Assembly (NCBI RefSeq): GCF_056746865.1
Contig: NZ_CM163382.1
Direction: 5' to 3' (one strand)
DNA length: 64,000 bases
Shown here one piece after another: positions 30,001 to 32,192 of the stretch (position 1 is its first letter; each line of letters begins with the position of its first letter). The translations under genes and the position numbers were made by a program. The notes under the pieces are model-generated. The model was not told where the DNA came from and searched no databases. It saw nothing but the letters and a program-made list of their open reading frames with translations.

Positions 30001-31635
30001 ACCGTCACTGGCGGAGACGGTTAACAAATAACGGCTTGGTTTATCAGCGGCGGGGAGATTTAACGCCACATGACCGCTATCGTCGGACACCGTTTCACTG
30101 CCTTCCAGCGACACGGGAAAACGTCCGGCATAACGCAAATCGTTGCCCACCATCGACAGTTGTTGAGATCGCAAACTTAACTGCACGCGGGCATCTTTTA
30201 CCGGCTCTCCATCCGGGTAAAGCAGTTGCAGTTTGCCGCTGACCGCTTCGCCTGTTTTGAACTCTTTTTTGTCGAGAGCTAAACCAATCTCGAAATGTGG
30301 CTTGATGTAGTTTGCCACGCGAAAACTGCTGCTATAGACCTGTTTGCGGTAAGCCAGGCGTAACTCATAACCTCCGGCGACGGCATTTTCTGGCAGGCGG
30401 AAACTCCCCTGCCCGCCATTACGCGCATCCAGCGTGACATTGATGGTTTGCAACAGACTGCCGTTGGCGTCCAGCACTGAAAGCTTCGCCGGGGCGCTGA
30501 CGATGGGGGATGAATGCAACGGGTCGTGGAACTCGCGGCCCATCACTTTGACATCAACACGATCGCCTGCACGATACAGAGGGCGGTCGGTAAAGATATA
30601 CAAGCGGGTGTTGTAGATTTCGCTTTCGTAGAAAAAATTCTCGGAGACAAAAACGCCGCCTTCAGCATCTTTACCCAGAATGTATGAACGTTCCGGCGAT
30701 ATATGTTGTAACTGCAAGGTACCGCTGTCATCGGTCACACCGCGGGTCATCACGCCAAGACCGTCAGTCCACAAGATCTCTGAGCCGGGCTTCGCTTCAC
30801 CCTGTTTTTTACCCGCGGTCCACACCAGAAGCTCGTTACCTGACACTTTGCTAAGCGCCACGGTATCGGAAACAAACACCACCGTCGTCGCCCGATACCC
30901 ACCAACCATCGCCTCGACGAGGTACAGTCCCGGCTCTTGCTTGCCTAGCGGAATATAGATGTTACCCGGCTGCGGCGAGATGAAATTGCTGGATGCACCT
31001 TCCAGTTTTACCCCTTGCTGCGGCTCGACCGGTTTAGCCTGCCATAATGGGTAACGGAACTGTTCCACAAGTGGATATTTTTTCAGCGGGGAAAACTGGT
31101 TGTTCTGTACATAACGGGAAGGTTTAATAATGGCATTGCCGAGATGTAATTCGGGTAATGCCTGAGTCACATTCTGCCGTGACTGAGAAGAGAAAGTACG
31201 CTGCATCACGCGGCGAGATTTGCCGTACCAGTTATCCCACAGCCAGGTCAGCGTGTTGTTCAGCCCGTCGCCCAGATATTGCGGTTGCACCACAATGCGA
31301 TGCAGATTTTTCTGCTGGCGCAAAAATGCCATCGGGTCAGGAATACGATACAGACGAACATCCACACCGCCGTACTCTTCCATCTGATAACGCCGATAAT
31401 CACGCCCCGGCGCTTCCAGTCGCACTTTCGCCTCTTCACTGCTGCTAAAACTGCTGTCAGCGAGCAAAAAGAATGTTCCCCCGGCGGGCGGCGCATAGTT
31501 ACTGGAAGGAAGCGAATCATCAGCATTAGCAAGCCCTGTTCCCACAAGAGACAGGCACAAGCACGCTGCTATCGCGCCAGAAAATTTAAACGATAAATGC
31601 CAATGAAATTGGGATTGGAATCGTTGGGTATCCAT
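27031..31635 (-). CDS. yfaS: YfaS, alpha-2-macroglobulin-family protein, uninterrupted (~1534 aa from second Met)
   Basis: Continuous 1539-codon ORF with an N-terminal signal-like hydrophobic segment; 5' end overlaps yfaT 3' end so the start is uncertain (31650 or 31635). Confidence 0.85.
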
Positions 31636-32192
31636 CGGGTGTCCTTCCATGTCATAAGTTGTTGCAGACTGACTGCGCGCATTCCGTTGTCAGTTTTCGT
31701 AGCGCTTCCGGTGTGGTAGATGACGTAACGCCCCATCCAGACCATTAAGTGCTGGGCATCGCCCTGATCGAAAAAAATCATATCGCCAGGCAGCGCCTGG
31801 TTTATGTCCTGGCCAATGAACTGGCTGTTATATTGAATCAAATTAATCGCGGTCACATAGGGGCCGGTTTTTCCGTTCCCCTGATTCCAGTTTTGCGCCA
31901 GTTGACGCTGTTCAGGTGTTAGCGTCATTTCAGGCGGCAAATACTGACTTGCTATACCGTTACTTTTTAGCCATTTGCTGTCGTGAATTTTCAGCGCCTC
32001 GTTCGCCGAAAATCGCACCAGGCCCGCACAATCCTGCTGATACCAGCGTGGGCTTGGCCCCTGGCGGAGTTGTTCCTGTGCAATGCGTACAAACCACGCG
32101 CGAAACAGCCCCGACTGTTCGACATTCAGCATTTCGCTATGGGCAACAACACAACACAGCCAGCAAATCAGCGCCAGCAGCCCGTGCCTCAT
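31569..32192 (-). CDS. yfaT: YfaT, DUF1175-family protein (~207 aa)
   Basis: Translation ...[19 protein letters not shown] (signal) ...; the ORF may start 9 codons earlier at 32219. Confidence 0.82.

Follow-up and report, generated by a model that had tools for sequence, protein, structure and literature searches.

The yfaS gene of Escherichia coli, which we examined in a 64,000-nt stretch of contig NZ_CM163382.1 (RefSeq assembly GCF_056746865.1; this whole stretch is hereafter called the window), most likely begins at the ATG at 31635 and overlaps the 3' end of the upstream gene yfaT by 67 nt, a reading to which we assign a probability of roughly 0.75 on the basis of sequence comparisons. 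All features described lie on the minus strand, offsets are counted from the stop codon of yfaT or of its ortholog magC, and the region studied is 100% identical to that of E. coli strain 118UI. The GTG at 31545, which is the start given in RefSeq, is probably wrong and would cut off the export signal of the protein. The best supported view of the junction is that yfaT and yfaS represent a genuine long co-directional overlap, which would be a new and well-supported member of a rare class.

Three forms of YfaS are present in the public protein collection, with 1539 aa (from 31650), 1534 aa (from 31635), and 1504 aa (from 31545), and the start of this gene is therefore genuinely unsettled in databases. 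The 1534-aa form was found on at least 1000 contigs, many WP_ entries have 1504 aa, and the 1539-aa form is annotated in some GenBank entries, such as CAR13749.1. The RefSeq/PGAP start, which was assigned both in 118UI and in a K-12-derived strain, is located 23 nt beyond the yfaT stop and creates no overlap. A protein search with the YfaS N-terminus returned short fragments only, which are useful solely for the positions at which N-termini were called; the N-terminal fragment clusters of E. coli that matched best (P0001, P0002, P0003, and P0005) begin with MDTQRF, and the genes called on Aeromonas (L084) and Chania (L085) contigs likewise start 67 nt within magC. In the K-12-derived strain, yfaS is marked in RefSeq as a pseudogene with an internal stop (8756-13270 of that locus, L002, in which 8756 corresponds to 31545 of the window), and the ORF (open reading frame) of the window (27031-31545) is intact.

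Sequence anatomy and conservation of the proposed start region

The initial annotation of this region had reported that yfaS overlaps the end of yfaT by approximately 65-80 nt in a different frame, which was confirmed by the minus-strand sequence, the ORF list, and the translations. The yfaS ORF extends from 31650 to 27031 in a frame in which codon position 1 of yfaS coincides with codon position 3 of yfaT, and its two upstream in-frame ATGs, at 31650 and 31635, correspond to overlaps of 82 and 67 nt, respectively, with a yfaT gene that ends in a TAG at 31571-31569. The accompanying statement that no ATG, GTG, or TTG lies between this stop and the hydrophobic segment of YfaS also held; the next canonical in-frame starts 3' of 31635 are TTG 31560 and GTG 31545, both of which are inside the hydrophobic run.

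Among the five candidate starts in the window, ATG 31635 is the only one accompanied by a Shine-Dalgarno (SD)-like sequence (Table 1), the free energy (dG) of pairing with the 16S tail being +0.8 kcal/mol at ATG 31650, -1.5 kcal/mol at ATA 31572 and TTG 31560, and -1.7 kcal/mol at GTG 31545. Local RNA structure is also weakest at ATG 31635 (-8.2 kcal/mol vs -21.7 kcal/mol at the RefSeq GTG). The chance of this arrangement was estimated with a model in which the YfaT protein was fixed and synonymous codons were drawn from the local usage of each locus. In the window, an open yfaS frame between -67 and the stop had a probability of 0.15, and an ATG at -67 had one of 0.11; the joint probability of these two features and AAGGA was 0.003 for the window and Enterobacterales and 0.02-0.05 in Pseudomonas. 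The arrangement of start, SD-like sequence, and open frame is more than chance, and every other Escherichia locus and nearly every related locus examined had it. The E. coli junction itself is at least 95% identical in 5381 genomes, a variation too low to be informative; strains 118UI and O127:H6 E2348/69, in both of which yfaS is intact, match it at 100%.

The start is embedded in a block of yfaT with conserved synonymous sites, the nearly invariant codons of which are CTG CAA CAA CTC ATG ACA TGG AAG GAC ACC CGA TGG ATA CCC. The upstream ATGs arise from the yfaT codon pairs ACA/TGG (-82) and CGA/TGG (-67) and were found in almost all loci, and the block codons were counted across loci as CAA in 81/81, ACA in 70/70, AAG in 78/79 (Lys codons), CGA in 80/81, and ATA in 76/81. 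The block thereby keeps A-ending codons that are rare in Pseudomonas, the genomes of which have a GC content of 60-70%. Over locus pairs with less than 85% YfaT identity, synonymous-codon identity was 0.77 between codons -32 and -14, peaking at 0.86 around codon -24, and 0.54 for the rest of the gene; 19-codon windows elsewhere had a standard deviation of 0.03 and a maximum of 0.65, and the last 13 codons had a value of 0.50. At the protein level, the YfaT C-terminus is conserved through its final residue, with 18 of 18 aligned homologues ending in the same column. The proposed start codon and putative ribosome-binding site of yfaS are conserved beyond what the YfaT protein imposes.

Table 1. 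Positions of the features of the yfaT-yfaS junction in the window
Feature	Position	Strand	Basis or remark
Synonymous-site conservation block within yfaT, read as the yfaS initiation region	31620..31664	-	Codon table, synonymous identity
Proposed yfaS start ATG, offset -67	31633..31635	-	Last base of yfaT Arg CGA and TG of Trp TGG
SD-like AAGGA, 6 nt 5' of ATG 31635	31642..31646	-	dG with 16S tail -5.5 kcal/mol
Out-of-frame overlap of yfaT 3' end and yfaS 5' end, 67 nt	31569..31635	-	Window sequence, translations
yfaS coding sequence as proposed, type II alpha-2-macroglobulin, 1534 aa	27031..31635	-	ATG 31635 to TAA 27033-27031
Predicted 38-residue signal peptide, cleavage after ANA	31522..31635	-	Assessed by hand
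yfaT coding sequence, DUF1175/MagC family, 207 aa	31569..32192	-	RefSeq annotation; Pfam PF06672, E = 3.6e-58
ATA codon at the yfaT stop, which it overlaps (ATAG)	31570..31572	-	Position of the ATGA start in most relatives
GTG, RefSeq/PGAP start, inside the hydrophobic core	31543..31545	-	RefSeq annotation
In-frame TTG (+8) inside the hydrophobic core	31558..31560	-	CTG in E. whittamii, Escherichia sp. E1V33, and E. albertii
Upstream in-frame ATG, offset -82	31648..31650	-	dG +0.8 kcal/mol; alternative 1539-aa start
Slippery-type heptamer T_TTA_AAT in yfaT phase	31584..31590	-	X_XXY_YYZ pattern; -1 shift enters the yfaS frame

The junction in relatives

Among 85 close magC/yfaT loci, which were mostly from Pseudomonas with others from Enterobacterales, Aeromonas, and Methylococcales, an ATG was present at -67 in 84, the exception being L071 (see below), and the frame was open to the stop in all 84 loci with an adjacent alpha-2-macroglobulin (A2M) gene. 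Mean SD pairing over the 85 loci was -5.4 kcal/mol at -67 vs -0.5 kcal/mol at -4. An ATG at -4, as part of an ATGA stop/start overlap, was found in 72 of the 85 loci and opens a canonical signal peptide, e.g., MNRLLAVALLALVPLAVQA/EDE (a slash marks the cleavage site). The corresponding codon is ATA in Escherichia (ATAG), Superficieibacter (ATAA or ATAG), and Salmonella, P. flavescens, and one metagenome-assembled genome (MAG; all ATAA), and the junction reads CTGA in P. jinjuensis, P. oryzagri, and Enterobacillus. Judging from these junctions, ATA 31572 is probably the relic of an ATG that was lost when the yfaT stop changed from TGA to TAA or TAG; the window reads ATAG at 31572-31569, and coupling of the ATGA type is not found in E. 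coli.

This set was widened to 164 junctions with an adjacent A2M ORF by including distant MagC homologues (47-56% identity) and a metagenome scan. In 26 of the 164 loci, no canonical start other than the codon at -67 or -64 (ATG or GTG) precedes the signal-peptide core, and SD pairing was -5 kcal/mol or stronger in 22 of these. The 26 loci represent approximately 13 lineages, including at least four separate gammaproteobacterial losses of the -4 ATG, in Enterobacteriaceae, P. flavescens, P. jinjuensis, and the MAG L036. The codon at -4 in lineages without an ATG there is CTG, TTA, TTG, GTA, or ATA, and the -67 start is always kept. The hydrophobic core is encoded across or before the magC stop in eight loci (L090, L091, L093, L122, L136, L142, L158, and L170); the leader of L091, MAAHVRQPKLHWIFPLLFSFLLTGFSLLVGGSGALA/HD, is mostly encoded inside magC, after GGGAGGA-N6-ATG.

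Of the other 138 loci, 104 retain the -67 region together with a closer start, and 34 have no start codon at -67. The latter group, which mainly consists of a clade with the MagC C-terminus WKDSRWQP and also includes L087, L089, and L163, starts at ATGA or just past the magC stop, and AAGGA was absent in those inspected. A natural control is provided by Candidatus Methylobacter oryzae (L071), in which the A2M gene is located approximately 230 nt downstream of magC (3558-3800) with its own start and the signal peptide MNNPLLFRCVLISLLLGMAAVVSA. Its block reads CAC TGG AAA GAT ACC CGC TGG, the ATGs at -67 and -82 and the AAGGA are lost, and the alternative frame is closed by a stop, which shows that the synonymous constraint goes with an A2M start at the junction.

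E. coli YfaT shares 67-76% identity with Pseudomonas MagC proteins (loci L009-L082), which appears unusually high between these orders, and the operon may possibly have been transferred horizontally.

Predicted export of YfaS and the weighing of alternative starts

YfaS contains the Pfam domains PF01835 (MG2; 2.7e-26), PF07703 (A2M_BRD; 4.7e-18), PF00207 (A2M; 3.2e-12), and PF17973 (bMG10); the CxEQ thioester motif is absent from the whole 1534-aa protein, which has three Cys only, two of them in the leader. RefSeq annotates the operon as yfaA-yfaT-yfaS-yfaQ-yfaP, closely packed on the same strand, and the partners of yfaS encode PF09909 (DUF2138; yfaA), PF06672 (DUF1175; yfaT), PF10062 (DUF2300; yfaQ), and PF09906 (DUF2135; yfaP). 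According to the definition of type II A2Ms, i.e., the lack of CxEQ and an association with DUF2138, DUF1175, DUF2300, and DUF2135 genes rather than pbpC (PMC3735191; PMC5764988), the operon is of the type II (MagD/YfaS) kind in its domains, lack of CxEQ, and gene content. The yfaT/yfaS junction is the odd one in this operon; yfaA and yfaT share an ATGA at 32189-32192, the yfaS TAA abuts the yfaQ GTG (27030-27033), and yfaQ and yfaP are separated by 4 nt (approximately 25376-25384). YfaT (31572-32192) also gave a sub-threshold NlpC/P60 match (E = 4.4e-4), and a SpoIID-like stretch was noted beside DUF2300 in YfaQ (25384-27030); these matches hint at peptidoglycan-related roles for the partners of the A2M.

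The MagD protein of P. aeruginosa has a predicted 26-residue signal peptide, which is required, and is periplasmic (PMC3735191), and its residues 1-64 carry mCherry into the periplasm (PMC3735191; PMC5764988). In comparisons of E. coli with E. albertii, E. whittamii, and Escherichia sp. E1V33, the dN/dS of yfaS was 0.03-0.04 with dS up to 0.83. yfaS is thus under strong purifying selection in Escherichia and therefore requires a functional start and a functional export signal. In all four Escherichia species, the reading frame is kept through the hydrophobic core and the AxA site, with no indels or stops. Assessed by hand, the leader from 31635 comprises a 17-residue n-region with a net charge of +1, the last residue of which, Lys17, adjoins a 19-residue uncharged core (31528-31584), followed by ANA/DD, and it is comparable in length to the 30-36-residue leaders of lineages that have the -67 start alone. 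The same analysis by hand indicated that this core and cleavage site are present only when translation starts at or upstream of ATA 31572.

In Enterobacteriaceae without the -4 ATG, the yfaT Leu codon is TTA (31587-31589 in the window), with the result that the yfaS frame reads Lys (Lys17, AAA at 31585-31587) beside the core, as FKFSG, FKLSG, or LKFSG; Pseudomonas uses CTG, which results in Glu (STELS, SAEFP). The TTA-encoded Lys could be an adaptation of the longer leader. Two other types of export signal were considered and rejected. A Tat signal in the extension was discarded on the grounds that RR pairs in Pseudomonas are far from the hydrophobic core and that E. coli has no RR. A lipoprotein signal (IAAC, residues 22-25, 31561-31572) was rejected because its Cys is not conserved, being Tyr in Escherichia sp. 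E1V33, and because the uncharged run that precedes it, of 7 residues, is too short; this lipobox-like match is probably due to chance.

We propose that ribosomes bind AAGGA at 31646-31642 within an A-rich, weakly structured part of the yfaT message and start at ATG 31635. The first 22 codons of yfaS would then be read from the DNA of the conserved YfaT C-terminus, followed by the hydrophobic core, and the product would be a 1534-residue precursor that, after Sec export and cleavage, gives a mature type II A2M beginning at Asp39. The internal initiation region is probably an old feature of the magC-magD/yfaT-yfaS pair, and most gammaproteobacterial relatives additionally have the -4 ATG; in the lineage of Escherichia, Salmonella, and Superficieibacter, the change of the stop would have left -67 as the only canonical start. 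The initial annotation had suggested, as one of two alternatives, that the two genes are translationally coupled through their long overlap. The overlap is supported by the conserved start, the SD-like motif, the open frame, and the lineages in which this start is the sole one. These features do not establish coupling; with its own AAGGA and its position in the least structured stretch, the -67 site would suffice for independent initiation without coupling.

Regarding the other starts, initiation at ATG 31650, either alone or together with 31635, is unlikely. It is the first ATG of the ORF and has the support of the GenBank entries of 1539 aa, and the third-position A of the preceding yfaT codon (ACA, AAA, or CAA) is kept in 78 of the 85 close loci; however, it lacks an SD-like sequence, several lineages do not have it (AAC TGG, which gives CTG), and it adds an acidic residue that lowers the net charge of the n-region to 0. 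In Salmonella, its counterpart is a GTG followed by an in-frame TGA before -67, and it cannot serve there. The other proposal in the initial annotation, namely, that the N-terminal codons are untranslated and that yfaS starts at a non-canonical codon, is disfavoured as well. In its most concrete form, a ribosome ending yfaT would re-initiate at ATA 31572, on the relic of the ATGA, with a 17-residue leader. This is exactly the site of the ATG annotated as the start in the 72 close relatives mentioned above, n-region-like basic residues come next in Salmonella (TRYR) and Superficieibacter (SRQPFSR), the tight spacing of the other operon junctions is as in coupled genes, and AUA initiation is measurable in E. 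coli, at approximately 0.02-3% of AUG in reporters even behind a strong ribosome-binding site (Hecht et al., 10.1101/063800). We nonetheless regard it as quite unlikely because of this low efficiency and the lack of an SD-like sequence. Moreover, the E. coli leader from there has no charged n-region, the near-cognate identity of the codon is not preserved elsewhere (ATG, ATA, CTG, TTA, TTG, and GTA) but the start at -67 is, and in several lineages that lack the -4 ATG, the hydrophobic core is encoded before this position. The RefSeq start at GTG 31545, under which the open frame upstream would be a by-product of the conserved YfaT protein, is the choice of PGAP in the two genomes inspected and that of the many 1504-aa entries, and conforms to the rule by which a co-directional overlap of at least 60 bp reflects a mispredicted 5' extension (PMC2478687). 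It is very unlikely considering that only MGTGLANA, with 6 uncharged residues, remains before the cleavage site, which leaves a member of a periplasmic family with no signal peptide. This GTG also combines poor SD pairing with the strongest local structure, is GCG in E. albertii, and lies downstream of a hydrophobic core that is intact in frame across four Escherichia species.

Two explanations dispense with a start inside yfaT. The conserved block may be an RNA-level element, such as a hairpin, an RsmA/CsrA site with GGA, or an internal promoter, with yfaS being expressed otherwise or poorly. The block holds three GGA motifs (AUGGAAGGA...AUGGAU), and the mag operon is controlled by RsmA, the known target of which is the magA leader (PMC3735191); a second RsmA/CsrA site within 31620-31664 is conceivable from the sequence, and a CsrA site overlapping the SD would be compatible with initiation at 31635. 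RNAalifold of 17 diverse junctions suggested that yfaT codons -10 to -4 pair with the AUG region (-8.2 kcal/mol, 2 covarying pairs), but the shuffle controls for RNAalifold and for the pair counts were unconvincing, and synonymous sites in the proposed 3' arm are free to vary. No relevant Rfam family was found in 31350-31850, in which the only hit was a sub-threshold BjrC68 match (E = 0.29), the segment 31560-31680 folded as a single RNA had no excess stability (z = -0.02), and a sigma-70 scan of both strands revealed no promoter-like site. RNA structure as the main explanation was dropped in view of the weak consensus fold and its 2 covarying pairs. An RNA-level element leaves the open frame and the hydrophobic cores without another start unexplained, and we consider the chance of its being the correct account to be very small; a hairpin at the AUG region could at most add a coupling element, and explains neither the open frame nor the leaders without another start. 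A programmed -1 frameshift at T_TTA_AAT, which would produce a YfaT-YfaS fusion, is extremely unlikely. The heptamer has the X_XXY_YYZ pattern in the yfaT phase, and Salmonella has T_TTA_AAC; however, it is confined to Escherichia and Salmonella, Superficieibacter having C_TTA_AAT or C_TTA_AAC, and it is absent in Pseudomonas and in distant lineages without a -4 start. It is followed by no significant structure according to the same fold of 31560-31680, and the signal sequence of the A2M would fall inside a protein of approximately 1700 residues. In P. aeruginosa, MagC and MagD are separate proteins (PMC3735191; PMC5764988).

Several points weigh against the start at 31635. A survey of 338 genomes detected no real co-directional overlap that reached 60 bp (Palleja et al., PMC2478687), which sets a prior against a long overlap of yfaT and yfaS, and the ortholog-length rule of that study would class a yfaS gene starting at 31635 as a mispredicted 5' extension in comparison with MagD from the annotated -4 start; the data presented here argue that it is a genuine exception. 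In Pseudomonas, the annotated -4 start provides a canonical signal peptide that suffices for export, and the conserved block could therefore have another role there, e.g., as a masking hairpin or an RsmA/CsrA GGA site. The SD-like match is moderate, with approximately 10% of regional positions scoring -6 or better, and the motif is weaker in Superficieibacter (AACGA), Salmonella (AATGA), and L170. An n-region of 17 residues with a net charge of just +1 is atypical for a leader, which was judged by hand. Because the loci cluster phylogenetically, their counts are not independent events, and many of the loci come from metagenomic contigs of unknown taxonomy. Neither yfaS nor yfaT appears in the main text of the Ribo-RET paper, a literature search yielded no start-site data, and no publication was found that described the yfaT-yfaS junction or an upstream MagD start.

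Related systems and implications

The magC-magD genes of P. aeruginosa (PA4490-PA4489), which belong to the MagABCDEF operon, are orthologous to yfaT-yfaS as a gene pair and within an orthologous operon (DUF2138, DUF1175, A2M without CxEQ, DUF2300, and DUF2135), and MagD, similar to the predicted YfaS, is an A2M with an N-terminal signal peptide. In the P. aeruginosa group, the same AAGGA-N6-ATG block lies 67 nt inside magC in P. delhiensis, P. citronellolis, P. nitroreducens, and P. otitidis. The contig of cluster P0127 has a junction and an A2M N-terminus of the P. putida/fluorescens type, not of the P. aeruginosa group. MagD has been studied with its 26-residue signal peptide, and related Pseudomonas species obtain such a short one from ATGA at -4, whereas E. 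coli has ATAG. A MagD species of higher mass has been observed in the magE mutant of P. aeruginosa (PMC5764988).

Among known overlaps, holD-rimI, which was described in 2008 (PMC2478687), is likewise co-directional, out of frame, and conserved among relatives, and was accepted as real based on its conservation. It measures 32-56 bp and is the longest accepted in that study, whereas the 67 nt of yfaT-yfaS exceed its 60-bp limit; furthermore, unlike holD-rimI, the yfaT-yfaS overlap would encode the n-region of a signal peptide and is conserved well beyond Enterobacteria. Coupled ATGA overlaps of 4 nt are the usual state of this junction in relatives and that of yfaA-yfaT in the window; in contrast, the E. 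coli junction is ATAG, its ATG has been lost, and it is not preceded by an SD-like sequence. The out-of-frame internal initiation sites detected by Ribo-RET, comS in srfAB, and Thermus rpmH in rnpA resemble yfaS in having a start and an SD-like sequence inside the frame of another gene. However, the Ribo-RET sites mostly open peptides of 2-84 residues with little conservation, whereas the proposed yfaS start opens 1534 codons and is conserved across classes of Proteobacteria. Near-cognate starts are used in E. coli, as in the AUU of infC and pcnB. ATA 31572 is comparable to these in that it occupies the site of an ancestral ATG at which weak AUA initiation is possible, but it has neither an SD-like sequence nor a conserved near-cognate identity, and a near-cognate start is not needed given the start at -67.

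A start at 31635 would resolve the disagreement among databases over the 1539-, 1534-, and 1504-aa forms of a gene that is widespread in E. coli. The RefSeq/PGAP form, which is probably devoid of an export signal, would mislead predictions of localisation and the design of constructs. Taken together with its conservation, the junction represents a case of co-directional overlap longer than 60 nt, a class without a real case in the survey by Palleja et al., and if such an overlap is real, rules that automatically trim overlaps of this length can introduce errors. It also illustrates how a change in the stop of an upstream gene from TGA to TAA or TAG can destroy the start of the downstream gene, and how a second in-frame start can buffer this loss. 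What may be new here is the case of a long overlap and the hint that MagD-type proteins may have two starts, and the novelty is modest.

The present results raise the question of whether MagD in the Mag complex of P. aeruginosa is also produced from the conserved upstream start. A tentative extension, which we regard as possible but well short of probable, is that the AAGGA-N6-ATG site at -67 represents the ancestral start of type II A2Ms in general and is still active, and that Pseudomonas, probably including MagD of P. aeruginosa, uses both -67 and -4. If so, long and short MagD precursors would be produced, at a ratio possibly set by the translation of magC or by RsmA/CsrA at the GGA-rich region, and the published 26-residue signal peptide of MagD would be only a partial account.

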